From the sequence record MZ956761.1: a DNA stretch of 64,000 nucleotides. One strand, given 5' to 3'. The notes below the pieces were generated by a model that did not search any database, was not told the origin of the DNA, and was given only the letters and a program-made list of their open reading frames with translations. The translations under genes and the position numbers were made by a program. The stretch comes from a phage. Below are positions 2,711 to 63,123 of the stretch, piece by piece (position 1 is the first letter of the stretch; every line of letters starts with the position of its first letter).

Positions 2711-4409
2711 TTGTGTATTGACCAGATGAAATAGAATTCATAGATGCCATTTTTTCTGTCCAATCACCACCAACGTCCCAATCAACTGTCCCAGCAACTT
2801 TCCAAGAAAGATTTCCATTTACTGTGTTAGTTTGATTTCCTTCAACTAAAGTGGTAGCATCTCCTTTAACTGTAATGTCAGCATTACCTTCAACTATAAT
2901 AGTAACATTACCTTTAACTAGGATAGTTCCATTACCTTCAACAGTTTTCGTTTCGTCGCCGCGCACAAATATTGTATTGCTTCCATCTATTTGGTGAAGA
3001 CGATTATCCATGTTGTAATAAATTTCTGATCCACCGACGTTAGTCTTTTTATCACCGGCTACCAAAAAATTACCATCAGCATTTGTTATATCATACAAAT
3101 TATCAACAGTTTTTCTTGTTCTTCTTCCTGACGGTGATACTTCTTCATAAGTTCCAGTTGGATGAACTAATCTGTATCGTTCTTGCCCAGGGGTATCATC
3201 AAATTCCTGAATATGTCCGCTTTCAGTTTCCATTGTATGCACATAAGGATATTCGCCTTTATATGAAGAAACTGGTTCTTTGAATAAAATTCTCGAGTCA
3301 TTTGGAATAGGAGGATCAGCAGGGTCAGAAGATTTAGCTACAGTAGCAGCCATTGCAGATAAAGACCTAGCTGGTGTTTTCACTTCAACACCATATGATT
3401 CCAAATTTCCCGTAAGAATAATCATGGTAACACGGGATGCACGACCTTTTGTTTGTTGATACCACAATGAATCACGACCGGCTTTATATGCTTTTTCCCA
3501 ATCTCCTGCTAACATAGCAGTTAACATTGTGTTAAATTTAGCGACACCACCAACACCCATCTGAAATGCCATATTTTCTAATGCCATTTGACGAGAACGG
3601 TTGACAGCTTGCCAGACTGGTCCTACTTTAGAATGTGATTTAATGTCACGTTGCATATCAGCCAAATCACGCTCAAATAAAGCTGTCGCTTCTTCCATTG
3701 TAATAGAACCTGGATTTCCTGTAATTTCACGACCAACTTGTTTTGATAAAACTTTATTAATTTGAGCCATATCACGAACTGGCTGCTTCATGATAAGATG
3801 ACCAATACCAATTGTCGGATATCCTTCGGTATCCCAATAAACTTTTAGTCTTAATCCTTCATCACGGCGAAGCATTTCAGCCATTGACATATTTGGATTA
3901 TCATCGGTTGGAATCTCTGATAGTGGTCTATCATCGGGATTTATTGCGGTGTCTAAGTTACTATCTTGGATAATGTTAGAAGACGAATCATATCCTACTT
4001 CTCCGCCTTGGTTTAGTACGTTCGTATCATTTCCTAAACGTCTAGGATACTGCCCAGTTGGGTCAGAAAATCCTTCAAGTCTATTCGGTTTTTCGCGAAC
4101 TATTCCACCATACGTGCCAAGGACAATTCCGTTAGTTTTCCATTTGTCTAAAAAATGACCATAAACTCTAGTTCCTTCTACTGGCCCTGTAACAGAACCT
4201 CCAATTCCTGACATTGCTGCAGAAGTTATAGGTTGAATAACTGACATCCATGGTAATTTTTCAGTTGGAATACCCATTACATCACCTTGTGCTCTTTGAG
4301 GTGGATGCAAACCAACCACACGAACACGAACACGACCTAATTTTAATGGGTCCATTCTATCTTCAACAACACCAACAAACCAATTAAGGTTATTACTTAT
4401 CATTTCCAT
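2682..4409 (-). CDS. 5: Baseplate hub subunit and tail lysozyme gp5
   Basis: 575 aa; internal lysozyme-like segment (LRLKVYWDTEGYPTIGIGHL) resembling e lysozyme in this window; C-terminal VEGN-type beta-helix repeats. Confidence 0.9.
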   Translation of the reverse strand: MEMISNNLNWFVGVVEDRMDPLKLGRVRVRVVGLHPPQRAQGDVMGIPTEKLPWMSVIQPITSAAMSGIGGSVTGPVEGTRVYGHFLDKWKTNGIVLGTYGGIVREKPNRLEGFSDPTGQYPRRLGNDTNVLNQGGEVGYDSSSNIIQDSNLDTAINPDDRPLSEIPTDDNPNMSMAEMLRRDEGLRLKVYWDTEGYPTIGIGHLIMKQPVRDMAQINKVLSKQVGREITGNPGSITMEEATALFERDLADMQRDIKSHSKVGPVWQAVNRSRQMALENMAFQMGVGGVAKFNTMLTAMLAGDWEKAYKAGRDSLWYQQTKGRASRVTMIILTGNLESYGVEVKTPARSLSAMAATVAKSSDPADPPIPNDSRILFKEPVSSYKGEYPYVHTMETESGHIQEFDDTPGQERYRLVHPTGTYEEVSPSGRRTRKTVDNLYDITNADGNFLVAGDKKTNVGGSEIYYNMDNRLHQIDGSNTIFVRGDETKTVEGNGTILVKGNVTIIVEGNADITVKGDATTLVEGNQTNTVNGNLSWKVAGTVDWDVGGDWTEKMASMNSISSGQYTIDGSRIDIG

Positions 4410-4983
4410 AAGATTTCTCCATTATACGTATAAGGTCGTTCATAAATGAATTGATGTCTGATTTTGCTATTATTTTTATTTGACGAAGTTTTTCATTTTC
4501 AAGAACAGCCGCTTCATACGTATCGACCGCAGCAAGTGCTCCTTCATATTGAGGATATTTTCTAGCTTTATCGCCTTTATCATACCAAACATATGGATTA
4601 TCATCGTATGATATTAAATTATAAAATTTTTCACCGTTCTCATTCACATGATATACTATCTGGTCTCCACCCACATTTTTGTATTTTTGTATAGATGCTT
4701 GATAAGCTGCTTCTTGTGAAGTAATCCATCCATAATATGGATCATAATTATCATTACACATCAATAAAACCCAATACAGCTGTGGATTTCCATATATAGT
4801 ATTTGCTAATTCTTCCGGGCGTGGTGAACCTTTAATATAGTAAGTACGTAAGCGGTATCCCGCAAGAGCGCGTTTAAAATAGTCTTTATAGTTTCTAAAA
4901 ATATCTGTCATAGGAATAGTCGGCGCGTTTTTATTCACCGTTTTGGCCGCATATTCAATCGGATCAAAAAATGTAAAGAGCAT
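4393..4983 (-). CDS. 53: Baseplate wedge subunit gp53
   Basis: 196 aa ORF immediately upstream of gene 5 on same strand; length and order as T4 gp53. Confidence 0.8.
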   Translation of the reverse strand: MLFTFFDPIEYAAKTVNKNAPTIPMTDIFRNYKDYFKRALAGYRLRTYYIKGSPRPEELANTIYGNPQLYWVLLMCNDNYDPYYGWITSQEAAYQASIQKYKNVGGDQIVYHVNENGEKFYNLISYDDNPYVWYDKGDKARKYPQYEGALAAVDTYEAAVLENEKLRQIKIIAKSDINSFMNDLIRIMEKSYGNDK

Positions 4984-8812: not shown

Positions 8813-9046
8813 ATGAAAACTTATCAAGAATTTATTGCTGAAACTGCTGATGTAAAAGTTGAGTTTATTTATACTGACAAGAAAGATAAAATGGGTGAAA
8901 TGCCTCATGGAGTTCTTCGCGATGCATTAGATAATTTCGGTCAACTCGCTGCAGAAGATTACGGTGATAAAATTGTTGTTACTGGTCCTGCTGCAGTTAT
9001 TGAAAAATGGGCAGCAGAAAATAAATCAATTTTTCGTAAAAAATAA
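8813..9046 (+). CDS. Internal protein (IPI-locus type), CTS MKTYQEFIAE
   Basis: 77 aa from ATG 8813 (RBS GGAGAA); exact T4 internal-protein N-terminal decapeptide. Confidence 0.6.
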   Translation: MKTYQEFIAETADVKVEFIYTDKKDKMGEMPHGVLRDALDNFGQLAAEDYGDKIVVTGPAAVIEKWAAENKSIFRKK

Positions 9047-16983: not shown

Positions 16984-17301
16984 ATGAAAACGTATAAAGA
17001 ATTTATTGCAGAATCTGCTGCAGGACAACGTGTAGAAGGCGGTTATATCTGGATTGAACAAGTTGAGCCGCCGAGTCGCACTTCTACGGGTAAATGGAAA
17101 ATCACTGTTGATGGTCCTGGTGGTAAACGTAGGACTCTTAAAGAAATTAACGGGTACTATGAAGAAGCTCTTTCTGACGCGGGTACTTATATGATGCAAA
17201 TCATGATTAAAAACCCAGAAAATCGTTTTGCGGCTAGAGTTTTCCGCCGTATTGGAAATAAGCTTTATGATGCATATTCTAAAAACTTTCCTAAAGAATA
17301 A
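16984..17301 (+). CDS. Internal protein (CTS MKTYKEFIAE)
   Basis: 105 aa; CTS-type N-terminus with I-A-E site; IPII/IPIII locus position. Confidence 0.6.
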   Translation: MKTYKEFIAESAAGQRVEGGYIWIEQVEPPSRTSTGKWKITVDGPGGKRRTLKEINGYYEEALSDAGTYMMQIMIKNPENRFAARVFRRIGNKLYDAYSKNFPKE

Positions 17302-17317
17302 AAATTAAAGGATACAC

Positions 17318-17791
17318 ATGAAAACATATCAAGAATTTATTACTGAAGCAGCTATTAATTCTCAAATTATTGCTGAATCTTTTACTGATCTTTTGAAATT
17401 TAAAAAAGGTCAAAAAATCACTGCTGTATTGGATGATGGTACAGAAGTTGAGATGGATGTACAGGGATATAATTATGCAGTAGATGGAAAACTGTATAAT
17501 AAATCTCATGCTAAATTTGATTCATTTGACGACTTTGTTAATACAGTTGAAGATGAAAAAACTCGTAGATCCATTGCAACTGGTGATGCTAAGGTTCTTA
17601 TGGCACATGGTCATGAACGCATTCGCGCTAAACAGAATAAAATGGGTGAAGATAATTTTGCATTAGTTGGTTATCAATCTGGTAAACAAACTTATGGCTA
17701 TCAGCGTACTGCTACCATGTATAACAAAAATGGTAAAATCGCTTTCGTGAATAGCAAAGGCTCTATTCAGTACGTCAAATCATTCAAATAA
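17318..17791 (+). CDS. Internal protein (CTS MKTYQEFITE)
   Basis: 157 aa; CTS-type N-terminus. Confidence 0.6.
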   Translation: MKTYQEFITEAAINSQIIAESFTDLLKFKKGQKITAVLDDGTEVEMDVQGYNYAVDGKLYNKSHAKFDSFDDFVNTVEDEKTRRSIATGDAKVLMAHGHERIRAKQNKMGEDNFALVGYQSGKQTYGYQRTATMYNKNGKIAFVNSKGSIQYVKSFK

Positions 17792-58667: not shown

Positions 58668-60095
58668 GTGGTAGAAATTATTCTTTCTCATCTCATATTT
58701 GATCAAGCTTATTTTTCAAAAGTTTGGCCATATATGGATTCAGAATATTTTGAAAGTGGTCCAGCTAAAAATACATTCAAATTAATTAAATCTCATGTTA
58801 ATGAGTACCATAGCGTTCCATCTATTAATGCGTTAAATGTTGCATTAGAAAATAGTTCATTTACTGAAACAGAATATTCTGGTGTAAAAACACTTATTTC
58901 AAAACTAGCTGATTCTCCGGAAGACCACAGTTGGTTAATAAAAGAAACAGAAAAATATGTTCAGCAAAGGGCGATGTTTAATGCTACGTCTAAAATAATC
59001 GAAATTCAAACTAATGCTGAGCTTCCTCCGGAAAAACGAAATAAGAAAATGCCGGACGTTGGTGCTATTCCTGACATCATGCGTCAAGCATTATCTATTT
59101 CATTTGATAGCTACGTTGGTCATGATTGGATGGATGACTACGAAGCACGCTGGCTATCTTATATGAATAAAGCTCGTAAAGTTCCATTTAAACTTCGTAT
59201 TTTGAATAAAATTACAAAAGGCGGAGCTGAAACAGGAACACTGAACGTTTTAATGGCTGGTGTTAACGTTGGTAAGTCATTAGGATTGTGTTCATTAGCA
59301 GCAGATTATTTGCAGCTCGGACATAATGTTCTTTACATTTCCATGGAAATGGCAGAAGAAGTTTGTGCTAAGCGTATTGACGCTAATATGCTTGATGTTT
59401 CTCTTGATGACATTGATGATGGGCATATTTCTTACGCTGAGTATAAAGGAAAAATGGAAAAATGGCGTGAGAAATCTACTCTCGGTCGTTTAATCGTTAA
59501 GCAATATCCCACTGGTGGAGCAGACGCTAATACATTTCGATCGCTTTTAAACGAATTGAAGCTCAAGAAGAATTTTGTTCCAACAATCATTATTGTTGAC
59601 TATCTAGGTATTTGTAAATCTTGCCGCATCAGAGTTTATTCAGAAAATAGTTACACAACTGTTAAAGCTATCGCAGAGGAATTGCGTGCTCTGGCTGTTG
59701 AAACCGAAACTGTTCTTTGGACTGCAGCGCAGGTTGGTAAGCAAGCTTGGGATTCTTCTGATGTTAACATGAGCGATATTGCAGAATCTGCCGGTCTTCC
59801 AGCAACAGCCGATTTTATGCTTGCGGTCATTGAAACCGAGGAGCTAGCAGCTGCTGAACAACAACTCATTAAGCAAATCAAATCACGATATGGTGATAAG
59901 AATAAATGGAATAAGTTTTTGATGGGTGTTCAAAAAGGAAATCAGAAATGGGTAGAAATTGAACAAGATTCTACTCCAACTGAAGTAAGTGAAGTAGCAG
60001 GTTCACAGCAGATTCAGGCTGAACAGAATCGCTATCAAAGAAACGAATCTGCTCGAGCCCAGTTAGATGCTTTAGCGAATGAATTAAAATTTTAG
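58668..60095 (+). CDS. 41: Replicative DNA helicase gp41
   Basis: 475 aa, GTG start after AAGGAG; MVEIILSHLIFDQAYF; Walker A GVNVGKS. Confidence 0.95.
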   Translation: MVEIILSHLIFDQAYFSKVWPYMDSEYFESGPAKNTFKLIKSHVNEYHSVPSINALNVALENSSFTETEYSGVKTLISKLADSPEDHSWLIKETEKYVQQRAMFNATSKIIEIQTNAELPPEKRNKKMPDVGAIPDIMRQALSISFDSYVGHDWMDDYEARWLSYMNKARKVPFKLRILNKITKGGAETGTLNVLMAGVNVGKSLGLCSLAADYLQLGHNVLYISMEMAEEVCAKRIDANMLDVSLDDIDDGHISYAEYKGKMEKWREKSTLGRLIVKQYPTGGADANTFRSLLNELKLKKNFVPTIIIVDYLGICKSCRIRVYSENSYTTVKAIAEELRALAVETETVLWTAAQVGKQAWDSSDVNMSDIAESAGLPATADFMLAVIETEELAAAEQQLIKQIKSRYGDKNKWNKFLMGVQKGNQKWVEIEQDSTPTEVSEVAGSQQIQAEQNRYQRNESARAQLDALANELKF

Positions 60096-60131
60096 TTTAC
60101 AAGCCGACAAGACTATGGTATAGTAGTCTTG
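60094..60131 (+). promoter_or_regulatory. Early promoter with 9-bp dyad embracing the -10 region
   Basis: GTTTAC 60094-60099, TATAGT 60118-60123; ACAAGACTA 60106-60114 complementary to TAGTCTTGT 60123-60131. Confidence 0.5.
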
Positions 60132-60153
60132 TTGGTTAAATGAGGAGATTGTT

Positions 60154-60336
60154 ATGGAATTGGTAAAGGTAGTTTTTATGGGGTGGTTTAAGAACGAAAG
60201 CATGTTTACTAAAGAAATCACAATGATGAAAGATGACGTTCAATGGGCTACTAATCAATATGCTGAAGTTAATAAAGCACTAGTTAAAGCTTTCATTGAT
60301 GACAAGAAAGTATGCGAAGTGGATTGCCGAGGATAA
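60154..60336 (+). CDS. dmd: Dmd, discriminator of mRNA degradation (antitoxin against RnlA/LsoA)
   Basis: 60 aa MELVKVVFMGWFKNESMFTKEI; directly after gene 41. Confidence 0.7.
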   Translation: MELVKVVFMGWFKNESMFTKEITMMKDDVQWATNQYAEVNKALVKAFIDDKKVCEVDCRG

Positions 60337-60337
60337 T

Positions 60338-60595
60338 ATGCATATCGTTTTATTTAAACCTACTCCGTATAACGTCAGGAAAAATACTCAATTCAAAGCA
60401 CTTATCGCAGATACGTGGGAATTGGTATTAGATATTCCAGCAGAAGAAAGCCCTCCATTTGGTCGAGTGGAATTTATTAAGTTTGCTGTGCGCCCTACAA
60501 AGCGGCAGATTCGCCAATGCAAAAGATACTTTCGTAAAATCGTCAAGTTAGAGAAACAGTTTGTAACATGTGATTATACAGAAGTTTTAAAATAG
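60338..60595 (+). CDS. Hypothetical basic protein (61.4 position)
   Basis: 85 aa from ATG 60338 (RBS GAGGATAA). Confidence 0.4.
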   Translation: MHIVLFKPTPYNVRKNTQFKALIADTWELVLDIPAEESPPFGRVEFIKFAVRPTKRQIRQCKRYFRKIVKLEKQFVTCDYTEVLK

Positions 60596-60597
60596 CT

Positions 60598-60639
60598 GTT
60601 TACAAGCTGATAGAGTTGTGTTATAGTAATTCTATCAGC
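60598..60639 (+). promoter_or_regulatory. Early promoter with 9-bp dyad embracing the -10 region
   Basis: GTTTAC 60598-60603, TATAGT 60622-60627; GCTGATAGA 60606-60614 complementary to TCTATCAGC 60631-60639. Confidence 0.5.
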
Positions 60640-60658
60640 TAATCGCGGAGAAAAGAAA

Positions 60659-60913
60659 ATGATGCTAGTTAATAGAGAATATCAGTTTAAATCAGAAGAA
60701 GATTTGGAAAAATTCGCGAGTGGTTGTGAACTGAATAGACGCACAGCTAAAGTCATAGGATTAAAACCCTTTACAGTTCTAGATTGTGAAGTTTCTAAAT
60801 TCCGCAGAGGGTGTTCTATTAGCGGTCATGCTCTGGTTGATGGGAACACATTTTTCTTTGTTTTTAGCGTCAGAGAACTTTTATTGATTAACGAACTTGA
60901 GGAAATAAAATAG
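60659..60913 (+). CDS. Hypothetical protein
   Basis: 84 aa. Confidence 0.45.
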   Translation: MMLVNREYQFKSEEDLEKFASGCELNRRTAKVIGLKPFTVLDCEVSKFRRGCSISGHALVDGNTFFFVFSVRELLLINELEEIK

Positions 60914-60941
60914 TTTACTTTTGTTTTAAACATGTTATTAT
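60913..60941 (+). promoter_or_regulatory. Early promoter (GTTTAC-N17-TATTAT)
   Basis: Contains 26-bp element identical to 12864-12889. Confidence 0.45.
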
Positions 60942-60977
60942 AGACTTATCAAAACAAACGAGTAAATGGAGAACAAA

Positions 60978-61160
60978 ATGTCTAAAGTATCAGGTTATCA
61001 ATTATTAACACAAGAACAACGTTCAGAGATGGATTCTTTACAAGAACGGTGTCAGCATAGAAATAACGCACTTGATTCATTTTTATTAGTTGAATATGAA
61101 AACTTGTGCTCTAGACTTGAAAAAGAATATGTTCATCAACATGAAGGAGGAGAAGAATGA
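60978..61160 (+). CDS. Hypothetical protein
   Basis: 60 aa from ATG 60978 (RBS GGAGAA). Confidence 0.4.
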   Translation: MSKVSGYQLLTQEQRSEMDSLQERCQHRNNALDSFLLVEYENLCSRLEKEYVHQHEGGEE

Positions 61161-61263
61161 AACTGAAATCACCAATTATTGCAATTTGTCTGTTTGCTTC
61201 TACTAGTGTTTACTTTTGTTGAAAATTGAGATACTATAAATATAAACTACTGAGGAGATTATC

Positions 61264-61557
61264 ATGAAAAAATTTGTTTTTGCTGCAATTTTTGCTTTGG
61301 CTTCTTGTACTGCTCAGCCTGCTATGGCGGGTTATGATAAAGATTTGTGTGAATGGTCTATGACTGCAGATCAGACTGAGGTTGAAACTCAAATTGAAGC
61401 AGATATTATGAATATCGTTGAGCGTGATCGTCCTGAAATGAAAGCTGAAGTGCAAAAACAGCTTAAGTCTGGTGGTGTAATGCAGTATAATTATGTTCTG
61501 TATTGCGATAAAAACTTTAATAATAAAAATATCATCGCTGAAGTGGTAGGTGAGTAA
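61264..61557 (+). CDS. sp: Spackle periplasmic protein
   Basis: 97 aa; signal peptide MKKFVFAAIFALASCTAQPAMA; position between dmd and 61. Confidence 0.65.
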   Translation: MKKFVFAAIFALASCTAQPAMAGYDKDLCEWSMTADQTEVETQIEADIMNIVERDRPEMKAEVQKQLKSGGVMQYNYVLYCDKNFNNKNIIAEVVGE

Positions 61558-61569
61558 TTAGAGGTTAGT

Positions 61570-61926
61570 ATGTATAGTTCTGAATTTTCATATTTAAAAA
61601 TGGAAAAAATTTCATACGATTTTATAGATGAAAAGGTTTATTACAGCTTCCATGAACCACGTTTTAATAGTGAGGTTGGGTTTATTGTAGTAAAAGACAA
61701 TTTCATTTTAAAAATATATTCGGCATTAAAGGATTTTCACTACGAAAATATTAACCTAAAATTTGATAAAGAAAACGTTCGTAATTGTGCAGTAACAATT
61801 ACAGGAAATAAAGGTACATGCGTTATGCTATCTGATGAAATTAATGATTTGCTAAATGATGCCGAAAAGGTTGTTGTTCCATCGATTGATGACCAAATTT
61901 TTAATGCTTTTATGAATAGAGGTTAA
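61570..61926 (+). CDS. Hypothetical protein (61.2 position, AdfA-like by position)
   Basis: 118 aa between sp and gene 61. Confidence 0.45.
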   Translation: MYSSEFSYLKMEKISYDFIDEKVYYSFHEPRFNSEVGFIVVKDNFILKIYSALKDFHYENINLKFDKENVRNCAVTITGNKGTCVMLSDEINDLLNDAEKVVVPSIDDQIFNAFMNRG

Positions 61927-61927
61927 T

Positions 61928-62092
61928 ATGAAAACATATAAAGAATTTATTAAAGAAGATATGGTCGCTGGAGATTCAGGTGGTAATCCTGAAAATATCT
62001 CCACTGGAACAACGTCAGGCGCTGTAGTAAATAAAGGTCCTGAACAGATTCCTAAAAAGAAAAAAGAGGAATCTAAAGAAAAAGAAGAGTAA
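61928..62092 (+). CDS. Small protein with CTS-like N-terminus (MKTYKEFIKE)
   Basis: 54 aa; after I-K-E the rest is Gly/Lys/Glu-rich. Confidence 0.4.
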   Translation: MKTYKEFIKEDMVAGDSGGNPENISTGTTSGAVVNKGPEQIPKKKKEESKEKEE

Positions 62093-62094
62093 AA

Positions 62095-63123
62095 ATGTCA
62101 TCAATACCTTGGATTGATAATGAGTTTGCATACCGTGCATTAGCTCATTTACCTAAATTCGCACAAGTAAATAATAGTTCAACTTTTAAATTACGGTTTA
62201 GATGTCCTGTTTGTGGAGATTCAAAAACCGATCAAAATAAAGCCCGTGGATGGTATTATGGTGATAATAATGAAGGAAATATTCATTGTTATAACTGTAA
62301 CTATCATGCACCAATCGGAATATATTTAAAGGAGTTTGAACCTGATTTATATCGTGAGTATATCTTTGAAATAAGAAAAGAAAAAGGTAAAAGTCGTCCA
62401 GTAGAAAAACCTAAAGAACTTCCTAAACAACCTGAGAAGAAAATAATTAAATCTCTTCCGTCATGCATTAGATTAGATAAACTGGCGGAAGACCATCCAA
62501 TTATAAAATATGTAAAAGCTCGTTGTATTCCAAAGGATAAATGGAAATATCTTTGGTTTACAACTGAATGGCCTAAATTAGTTAATAGCATAGCACCCGG
62601 AACATATAAAAAGGAAATACCTGAGCCTCGTCTTGTTATTCCAATTTATAATGCTAATGGAAAAGCTGAGTCTTTTCAAGGACGTGCATTAAAGAAAGAT
62701 GCTCCTCAAAAATATATCACCATCAAAGCTTATCCCGAGGCAACAAAAATCTATGGAGTCGAACGAGTCAAAGATGGTGATGTATATGTTCTAGAAGGAC
62801 CTATAGATTCACTTTTTATTGAAAATGGTATAGCTATTACGGGTGGTCAATTAGACCTAGAAGTTGTTCCATTTAAAGATAGACGTGTGTGGGTCTTAGA
62901 TAATGAACCTCGTCACCCTGACACTATTAAACGAATGACTAAATTAGTTGATGCAGGAGAAAGGGTTATGTTTTGGGATAAATCTCCCTGGAAATCAAAA
63001 GATGTTAATGATATGATTAGAAAGGAAGGTGCAACCCCTGAACAAATTATGGAATATATGAAAAATAATATTGCCCAAGGGTTGATGGCTAAAATGCGGC
63101 TATCTAAATATGCTAAGATTTAA
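62095..63123 (+). CDS. 61: DNA primase gp61
   Basis: 342 aa; zinc ribbon CPVCGDS...CYNC; TOPRIM-like region. Confidence 0.9.
   Translation: MSSIPWIDNEFAYRALAHLPKFAQVNNSSTFKLRFRCPVCGDSKTDQNKARGWYYGDNNEGNIHCYNCNYHAPIGIYLKEFEPDLYREYIFEIRKEKGKSRPVEKPKELPKQPEKKIIKSLPSCIRLDKLAEDHPIIKYVKARCIPKDKWKYLWFTTEWPKLVNSIAPGTYKKEIPEPRLVIPIYNANGKAESFQGRALKKDAPQKYITIKAYPEATKIYGVERVKDGDVYVLEGPIDSLFIENGIAITGGQLDLEVVPFKDRRVWVLDNEPRHPDTIKRMTKLVDAGERVMFWDKSPWKSKDVNDMIRKEGATPEQIMEYMKNNIAQGLMAKMRLSKYAKI

Follow-up and report, generated by a model that had tools for sequence, protein, structure and literature searches.

The interval of T4-like phages that is bounded by gene 41 (replicative helicase) and gene 61 (primase) was named the anti-toxin-antitoxin ('anti-TA') island by Srikant et al. 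(2022, eLife), who considered its remaining genes attractive antitoxin candidates (PMC9391042). The described products of this interval are directed against different host toxins: Dmd inhibits the RnlA and LsoA toxins (PMC9391042); gp61.4, since renamed TifA, inhibits ToxN of the ToxIN system (PMC9391042) by binding the toxin together with RNA and so trapping it (PMC10853763); and the product of T4 gene 61.2, AdfA, is an anti-DarT1 factor that binds the toxin (PMC11825919; also cited in PMC9391042). Two other described systems are relevant to the locus considered here. One is the modular shuffling of small early genes mediated by promoter-early stem-loop (PeSL) elements (PMC2839356, PMC4122927). 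The other is the GoF/Frd.2/MotB.1 family of the Tevenvirinae, predicted SH3/LSm-like beta-barrels (Kim et al. 2025; PMC12152347), in which the only phenotype is that of the GoF(D25Y) mutant, which stabilizes RNA carrying the gene 41 leader (PMC12152347). Against this background we analyzed positions 60154-62092 of a 64,000-nucleotide stretch of phage DNA (record MZ956761.1; the whole stretch is termed the window). This segment is the known counter-defence island of T4-like phages in its helicase-primase interval, and is largely ordinary: neither the phage nor the type of locus is new, and the less characterized members are open reading frames (ORFs) of 84, 60 and 118 amino acids (aa) and gp61.1.

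The island and its gene content

The + strand carries all genes of the island, with gene 41 (58668-60095) to their left and gene 61 to their right. Positions 60000-62200 match Escherichia phage ADUt (OQ466432, Tequatrovirus) at 100% identity, and the annotation of this phage has the same genes as the island ORFs of the window; in total 510 records match this segment, many other T4-like coliphages doing so at 93-98% identity. The products of dmd, tifA, sp and gene 61.1 are 96-98% identical to their T4 counterparts. The original prediction, made from the nucleotide sequence and its ORFs, had listed seven ORFs between genes 41 and 61, and all of them are present on this strand with the lengths it gave. 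Its assignments of dmd and sp hold at 59 of 60 and 93 of 97 identical residues, respectively, each with a match to the corresponding Pfam family, and its descriptions of the 85-aa ORF as basic (isoelectric point, pI, 9.8) and of the 54-aa ORF as resembling a capsid targeting sequence (CTS) are likewise borne out. Its statement that the 61.4 and 61.2 positions of T4 had been linked to inhibition of ToxIN and DarTG agrees with the literature on tifA (PMC9391042, PMC10853763) and adfA (PMC11825919). As to whether the ORFs at these positions are the respective homologs, the 85-aa ORF proved to be a TifA ortholog (83 of 85 residues), whereas the 118-aa ORF is not an AdfA ortholog. The features are as follows:

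60095-60135, + strand: early promoter 1 (GTTTAC ... TATAGT), predicted to drive dmd-tifA; pattern match, sigma-70 match 10/12 with TG
60154-60336, + strand: dmd (gene 61.5), 60 aa, direct protein inhibitor of the RnlA/LsoA toxins; T4 Dmd 59/60, Pfam PF17587 at 1.3e-45
60338-60595, + strand: tifA (gene 61.4), 85 aa, pI 9.83, ToxN endoribonuclease inhibitor; T4 gp61.4 83/85, Pfam DUF7279
60598-60640, + strand: early promoter 2, within a PeSL-like inverted repeat of 13 nt, at the left junction of cassette 1; pattern, sigma-70 scan, inverted repeat
60659-60913, + strand: 84-aa ORF, similar to the GoF N-terminal domain; phrog_2980 at 3e-20, BLASTP match to T4 GoF, no copy at this place in T4 or T2
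60913-60958, + strand: early promoter 3 and its inverted repeat of 8 nt, at the junction of cassettes 1 and 2; pattern, sigma-70 scan, inverted repeat
60978-61160, + strand: 60-aa ORF (cassette 2), pI 4.9; own early promoter, GGAG 6 nt before the ATG
61157-61222, + strand: 21-codon remnant (MKLKSPIIAICLFASTSVYFC, then stop) at the end of cassette 2; ATGA overlap with the 60-aa stop, GGAGG-type Shine-Dalgarno sequence upstream
61208-61237, + strand: early promoter 4 (GTTTAC ... TACTAT), predicted to drive sp, the 118-aa ORF, 61.1 and gene 61, right cassette junction; pattern
61264-61557, + strand: sp (spackle), 97 aa, periplasmic, with signal peptide; T4 Sp 93/97, Pfam T4_Spackle at 9e-45
61558-61569, + strand: putative scar of a deleted adfA, TTAGAGGTTAGT, like the last adfA codons (..AATAGAGGTTAAT); junction comparison with GEP001, T4 and T2
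61570-61926, + strand: 118-aa ORF, one AdfA-type domain plus the invariant tail SIDDQIFNAFMNRG; Pfam AdfA 34.6 bits, T4 gp61.2 36%
61928-62092, + strand: gene 61.1, 54 aa, CTS-like decapeptide, core resembling the gp23 N-arm and Lys/Glu-rich tail; T4 gp61.1 52/54
62095-63123, + strand: gene 61 (primase), right border of the island

The island thus has the borders of the T4 dmd-tifA-sp-adfA island (genes 41 and 61) and agrees with it in orientation and in early expression (PMC9391042). It differs in having two promoter-bounded cassettes, with the 84-aa and 60-aa ORFs, between tifA and sp, and in possessing only the 118-aa paralog in place of full-length adfA. The contents of these two gaps in related phages are:

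T4: nothing between tifA and sp; adfA between sp and 61.1
T2 and ZCEC15: nothing between tifA and sp; the 118-aa gene between sp and 61.1
SH7: the 84-aa gene between tifA and sp; the 118-aa gene between sp and 61.1
Ozark: the 84-aa gene between tifA and sp; adfA and the 118-aa gene between sp and 61.1
KFS-EC3: the 84-aa and 60-aa genes between tifA and sp; adfA between sp and 61.1
GEP001: the 84-aa and 60-aa genes between tifA and sp; adfA and the 118-aa gene between sp and 61.1
The window, ADUt and PP01: the 84-aa and 60-aa genes between tifA and sp; the 118-aa gene between sp and 61.1
RB69: imm.1 and imm between tifA and sp; adfA and two further ORFs between sp and 61.1

Hence, every combination of presence and absence of the 84-aa, 60-aa, adfA and 118-aa genes is seen across phages. 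The cargo of the helicase-primase interval also varies by lineage: in RB69 the imm and imm.1 genes occupy positions 4012-4690 of the locus (L005) between tifA and sp, in Shigella phage SP18 three ORFs precede dmd and there is no tifA (L013:2501-3516), and in metagenomic contigs gene 41 is followed by a 253-aa ORF and Pfam detects no dmd (L017:2679-3440).

The 85-aa ORF matches Pfam DUF7279 (PF23945) with 72.8 bits against a cut-off of 24.5 and is readily identified as a TifA ortholog. Its residues 55, 56 and 59 are K, R and R, the RNA-binding residues altered in the RB69 TifA mutant K55A R56A R59A that is named in the methods of PMC10853763. Like the wild-type T4 protein, it has Phe at position 41; the substitutions F41S and F41H strengthen ToxN inhibition, and ToxIN restricts wild-type T4 at single copy (PMC9391042, PMC10853763). 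The present TifA is thus, judging by its sequence, a weak T4-type F41 allele rather than one with the Ser or His of the strong inhibitors.

Early promoters and cassette junctions

The window was scanned over its 64 kb with the early-promoter pattern GTTTAC-N16-18-TAnnnT, which is strongly over-represented (23 matches, as against 2.35 +/- 1.5 expected) and directional, 22 of the 23 being on the + strand. A generic sigma-70 scan used by itself recovered 16 sites against 9.5 +/- 3.4 expected, an enrichment that is not significant. Four of the pattern matches, one more than the three early promoters originally predicted, fall in a 1.15-kb stretch of the island, at 60095, 60598, 60913 and 61208, where they precede dmd, the 84-aa ORF, the 60-aa ORF and sp, respectively. 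These four matches point to four early transcription units: dmd-tifA, the 84-aa ORF, the 60-aa ORF, and sp-118-aa ORF-61.1-gene 61. Promoters 1 to 3 are each embedded in an inverted repeat that brackets the -10 box. In promoter 1 the arms lie at 60104-60115 and 60124-60135, and T2 has the same sequence; the tifA promoter has been placed upstream of dmd (Srikant et al. 2022; PMC9391042). Promoter 4 is kept in both T4 and T2, and PMC9391042 refers to a promoter on the downstream side of tifA.

Comparison with T4 and T2 locates the ends of the inserted segment. Both phages continue after the tifA stop codon with ...CTGTTTAC followed by TTTTGTTGGAAATTGAGATACTAT..., which is the sp promoter. At the position of promoter 2 they read GTTTAC followed by TTTTGTTGGAAATTGAG, running directly into the sp promoter, whereas the window departs from them right after the GTTTAC. 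The insert therefore begins after the first GTTTAC shared with T4 and T2, and the window rejoins the T4 sequence at the fourth GTTTAC. Since both the divergence and the return fall at this hexamer, the insert is best described as two units, each comprising a promoter, a stem-loop and a single ORF, that are joined at their -35 boxes. The same pattern has been described for PeSL cassettes (Arbiol et al. 2010; Comeau et al. 2014), which resemble those found here in consisting of single small ORFs, in having the early promoter within an inverted repeat and in having indel junctions inside the promoter motif. We see no essential difference, and the present locus represents another example of the pattern.

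The end of cassette 2 offers a further view of such a junction. The 5' end of the 21-codon frame at 61157-61222 matches MVRL037 of Klebsiella phage KLB31, a 117-aa protein with a signal peptide that starts MKLRSLIIAIGMFAST, and the gene for this intact counterpart is situated in the helicase-primase island of KLB31. The frame in the window is thus a truncated signal peptide, left from the gene for a secreted protein and broken off at the GTTTAC of the sp promoter, and the match of this frame to an intact gene adds to the evidence that recombination takes place at the promoter motif. In KLB31 (Kanagawavirus) the homolog of the secreted protein is adjoined, within the same island, by a 96-aa ORF annotated as 'ADP-ribosyl transferase' (L016:1388-1678).

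The -10 region of the sp early promoter overlaps a perfect T4 late-promoter consensus, TATAAATA, at 61235-61242, 22 nt before the sp ATG. T4 and T2 carry TATATAAACA where the window has TATAAATA. Its candidacy as a late promoter of sp was dismissed, the motif being no commoner than chance in the window (11 occurrences against 10 expected).

The GoF-like, AdfA-like and gp61.1 proteins

The 84-aa ORF of cassette 1 is related to the N-terminal domain of GoF. BLASTP aligns it with T4 GoF at 37% identity over 41 aa (E 2e-8), and phrog_2980 covers its residues 7-82 and residues 11-91 of T4 GoF. In our alignment the protein spans the entire GoF N-terminal domain, ending at residue 84, which is also the end of the domain, and shares the sequence signature of the predicted beta-barrel domain of the GoF/Frd.2/MotB.1 family (VN..YQFK ... 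G..PF.ilD ... E.E). The ORF is accordingly recognizable as an independent gene for a GoF-type N-terminal ('LSm-like') domain, differing from GoF by its want of a C-terminal domain and by its locus, for T4 goF lies near gene 39 and the 84-aa ORF in the 41-61 interval. The RefSeq label 'goF mRNA metabolism modulator' was consequently rejected as a statement of orthology: T4 goF encodes 141 aa at another locus, and only the N-terminal domain is similar.

The 84-aa ORF was found in 84 phage records. Against metagenomic homologs of 78-81% identity, the proportion of non-synonymous differences (pN) is 0.13 and that of synonymous differences (pS) 0.74-0.81, the latter near saturation, which indicates a real gene under purifying selection. 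Diverged homologs stay within the 41-61 interval in three lineages, in different slots: in Shigella phage SP18 (Gaprivervirus) directly after gene 41 in the same island, and in the metagenomic T4-like contigs L017 and L019 directly upstream of tifA. A full HMMER scan of the 84-aa ORF against 1.84 billion representative proteins returned three hits, namely a true homolog, a repeat protein and a zinc-finger false positive. The repeat protein (P0013, 395 aa) has about five tandem repeats of ~85 residues; the similarity to the 84-aa ORF (its residues 34-80, E 8e-7) lies in the second half of the repeat, a ~45-residue unit (GMEPYVGK..V.EF.G.DSKGCRMARLS.NGNRL.FVFRVRDLE).

The 118-aa ORF occupies the position of adfA, directly after sp and before 61.1, and is likewise a single-domain relative of a larger protein. 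It scores 34.6 bits against Pfam AdfA (PF23813; cut-off 27), matching only profile positions 113-211 of 211, and is 36% identical to T4 gp61.2 over residues 109-208 of the latter, the last 14 residues being identical. The N-terminal half of the two-domain AdfA architecture (~208-212 aa) is absent from it. A full-length adfA (210 aa) directly precedes the 118-aa gene in GEP001 and Ozark; since the two genes co-exist there, they are tandem paralogs rather than orthologs, and the view of the 118-aa ORF as a truncated adfA allele was abandoned once this tandem was found. Comparison of the GEP001, T4 and T2 junctions revealed that adfA and the 118-aa gene share a 3' repeat of ~46 bp, which encodes SIDDQIFNAFMN(R/K)G and runs through the stop codon to the next ATG; the T4 arrangement would result if the two repeats recombined. 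By the same comparison, the 12 nt that follow the sp stop codon in the window are probably the scar of an adfA 3' end. The 118-aa gene occurs at 90% identity or above in ~295 records, including T2 (94%); the AdfA N-terminal half is present in 487 other phage records. A second matching place was found by the 118-aa search in 83 records, which we read as ~80 records carrying both genes.

Profile-profile comparison with hhalign aligns the N-terminal half of AdfA with the family comprising the 118-aa protein and the C-terminal half of AdfA (probability 80%, E 1.4e-5, 73 columns). It is this relationship that suggests that AdfA arose by internal duplication of a ~95-residue domain, of which the 118-aa protein is the single-domain form. 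The two share, besides this domain with its VKDN motif, the tail DDQIFNAFMNRG; the tail pattern DDQIFNAFM.R is common to the 118-aa protein, the 146-aa and 119-aa proteins of SP18 and a metagenomic 144-aa protein. Across T4-like genera the proteins encoded after sp (118/119, 144/146 and 208-212 aa) all end in DDQIFNAFM(N/K)R(G/D), as in T4 gp61.2 (L003:2133-2759), GEP001 (L010:1657-2647), SP18 (L013:4074-4875) and the metagenomic contig L017 (4484-4918). The half shared by AdfA and the 118-aa protein includes the position of RB69 R164, a determinant of DarT1 specificity at which R164H in RB69 AdfA, or His as in T4, permits DarT1 binding (PMC11825919). The 118-aa protein has Asn at this position. 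It differs from AdfA, then, in having one domain instead of two, Asn instead of His, and a separate gene able to adjoin adfA.

Gene 61.1 encodes a protein that starts MKTYKEFIKE and retains the CTS positions Y4, F7, I8 and E10. In the CTS of the internal protein IPIII, positions 4 and 7 serve targeting and positions 8 and 10 processing (PMC9026906). Only four ORFs in the 64 kb start with MKT[YF].EF[IL].[ED], gp61.1 among them. Two of the other three match PHROG families of the 'internal virion protein' kind, from which it follows that the CTS-bearing internal-protein set of the phage lies in the window; the third, at 16984-17301, matches an unnamed family. These three ORFs (8813-9046, 16984-17301 and 17318-17791) start MKTY[QK]EFI[AT]E. 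A gp61.1 family profile, built from Tequatrovirus, Mosigvirus and Kanagawavirus homologs, has a sole match in the PDB, namely residues 58-94 of the T4 major capsid protein gp23 (E 2.6e-5). As gp23 is cleaved by the gp21 protease after Glu65 during T4 head maturation, this match runs over the cleavage site into mature gp23*, of which it takes in the first 29 residues, with FLTE/AEIGG in gp23 aligned to FIKE/DMVAG in gp61.1. The RB69 homolog has 92 aa and no N-terminal MKT motif and keeps LFE/DMVAG internally. Thus, gp61.1 resembles the T4 internal proteins IPI, IPII and IPIII in its CTS positions and the gp23 maturation site in its core, which is aligned across the gp21 site; it differs from the internal proteins in comprising only 54 aa and in being encoded in an early operon ahead of the primase gene. 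No paper in the library searched discusses gp61.1 function. Klebsiella phage KLB31 has an unannotated 52-aa homolog ahead of its primase gene (L016, ~3012-3170).

Proposed counter-defence roles and their alternatives

The best explanation of the locus as a whole, and one that we hold to be reasonably probable, is a hyperplastic anti-TA island built in part of PeSL cassettes, with putative inhibitor functions for its unnamed products. Its components differ in strength. The gene identities, the architecture, the junctions, the distribution and the purifying selection are held with high confidence; that the unnamed ORFs encode counter-defence inhibitors is a tentative proposal. The idea that these ORFs are counter-defence candidates by association, also part of the original prediction, is a legitimate one that had already been published (Srikant et al., PMC9391042). 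As an interpretation, the original prediction is partly supported: it holds for the 85-aa ORF, errs in detail over the 61.2 position and for the rest repeats a hypothesis already in print.

In mechanistic terms, the island is a string of small early genes in four early-promoter units between replication genes 41 and 61. Its characterized products operate as stoichiometric protein inhibitors: Dmd on the RnlA/LsoA RNases, TifA by trapping ToxN with RNA, AdfA-type proteins on DarT, and Sp, within the periplasm, on the tail lysozyme of phage that superinfect. This phage combines a T2-like backbone (dmd-tifA and sp-118-aa gene-61.1) with two single-gene cassettes, each with its own promoter and stem-loop, spliced precisely at the GTTTAC -35 boxes in the pattern of PeSL-type shuffling. 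The predicted beta-barrel of the 84-aa protein may bind RNA or an RNA-targeting host factor, and the single domain and invariant tail of the 118-aa protein may form a toxin-binding module with a specificity other than for the tested E. coli DarT1. More generally, by analogy with their neighbors, the unnamed products may bind and inhibit host toxins or RNA-targeting factors stoichiometrically, a view in which our confidence is moderate to low.

Several points weigh against this explanation. No experiment or structure ties the 84-aa, 60-aa, 118-aa or 54-aa proteins to any defence system, and NCBIfam, PADLOC and the PDB contain no match that would mark any of the four as defence-related. AlphaFold2 models from shallow alignments were of low confidence (predicted local distance difference test scores, pLDDT, of 60.6 and 65.6), and the fold searches made with them were uninformative. 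The imm and imm.1 genes that fill the island slot in RB69 have superinfection rather than anti-TA functions, and linkage may accordingly mark only a site that tolerates insertions. As for the 118-aa protein, T2, which carries its gene and has been described by the LeRoux lab as naturally 'lacking an adfA homolog', becomes DarTG1-sensitive and loses four logs upon deletion of adfN (PMC11825919); the T2 copy thus gives no DarTG1 protection, and the protein does not neutralize the tested DarT1 at its native level. T4 AdfA, at native level, likewise fails to do so (PMC11825919), for which reason the T2 result does not decide whether the 118-aa protein targets another toxin. Other searches were negative in a more general sense: Rfam, NCBIfam and PADLOC scans of the region found nothing, PDB profile searches with the GoF-like and AdfA-like alignments gave no meaningful match, and a word-indexed search of 5.8 billion proteins with the 84-aa, 60-aa and 118-aa ORFs recovered close relatives only.

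The strongest alternative, which we nevertheless rate as somewhat unlikely, is that the 84-aa, 60-aa, 118-aa and 54-aa ORFs encode host-takeover factors or modulators of gene expression that are placed here since the interval tolerates insertions; a GoF-like protein, for instance, may tune phage mRNA stability in the manner of GoF(D25Y) with the gene 41 transcript. Such a role would suit the RNA-related function proposed for the GoF family, whose sole phenotype concerns gene 41 mRNA (PMC12152347), the character of the slot as a hot spot for insertions in general, among them imm and imm.1 of RB69, and the capacity of PeSL cassettes to move any small early gene (PMC2839356, PMC4122927). It fits less well with the three neighboring families (Dmd, TifA and AdfA) being demonstrated anti-TA factors, with the homologs of the 84-aa protein staying near tifA, dmd and sp in diverged lineages despite shuffled order, and with the homology of the 118-aa protein to the toxin-binding AdfA.

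For the 60-aa ORF there is the additional alternative that it is a non-gene, a frame that stays open across spacer DNA which recombination left behind. It is an acidic orphan confined to 21 near-identical phage records, which provide no informative substitution pattern, and to one protein cluster among the 5.8 billion clustered proteins searched; cassette 2 also carries the truncated gene remnant. It has no match in Pfam, the PDB or PADLOC, and matches phrog_37915, a family of unknown function. Set against its being a non-gene are its own early promoter, a GGAG site at the correct spacing from the ATG that we take as its start (the mechanical ORF list begins 4 codons earlier), the ATGA stop-start overlap at its end, which is typical of T4 operons, and the restriction of variation among relatives to in-frame codon indels in a terminal Gly/Glu run. 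On this evidence, the 60-aa ORF is probably a gene and the non-gene alternative is improbable.

Comparably unlikely, in our estimation, is a joint reading of the remaining two proteins, by which the island would encode further undescribed inhibitors besides Dmd and TifA. In its first part, an 'AdfA-domain' family, with one or two copies of the variable domain followed by the DDQIFNAFMNRG tail, would include a single-domain member directed against another DarT variant or toxin, and this member would be present in ~300 Tequatroviruses, including T2. In its second part, gp61.1 would mimic the maturation site and N-arm of gp23, and its role would be either that of an internal protein, with the corresponding packaging and processing, or that of a decoy that diverts gp21 or a gp23-recognizing host factor.

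That the 118-aa gene is a decaying, non-functional remnant of adfA left by a deletion, as its coverage of only the C-terminal half of the AdfA profile, the adfA 3'-end scar before it and the DarTG1 sensitivity of T2 lacking adfN might suggest, is very improbable and largely refuted by its conservation: it has its own start codon and 20 N-terminal residues that do not derive from AdfA, is intact in ~295 records, co-exists with full-length adfA, and evolves under purifying selection, with a ratio of non-synonymous to synonymous substitution rates (dN/dS) of 0.09-0.19, even against a 47%-identical homolog from another genus.

The interpretation of the locus as a counter-defence island enlarged by PeSL cassettes bears on T-even phages as a group, which are the main model for phage counter-defence and whose 41-61 interval has already given three anti-toxin factors. 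The ORFs of the island are now sorted into orthologs of known factors (Dmd, TifA, Sp and gp61.1) on the one hand and a GoF-type domain, an orphan and an AdfA paralog on the other, which narrows the experiments. The sorting also corrects the database labels of the 84-aa ORF (annotated 'goF') and the 118-aa ORF (annotated 'gp61.2'), and identifies a paralog whose presence has been treated in T2 studies as the absence of adfA. Finally, the internal duplication of AdfA and its invariant tail are a starting point for mapping the binding of AdfA to DarT.

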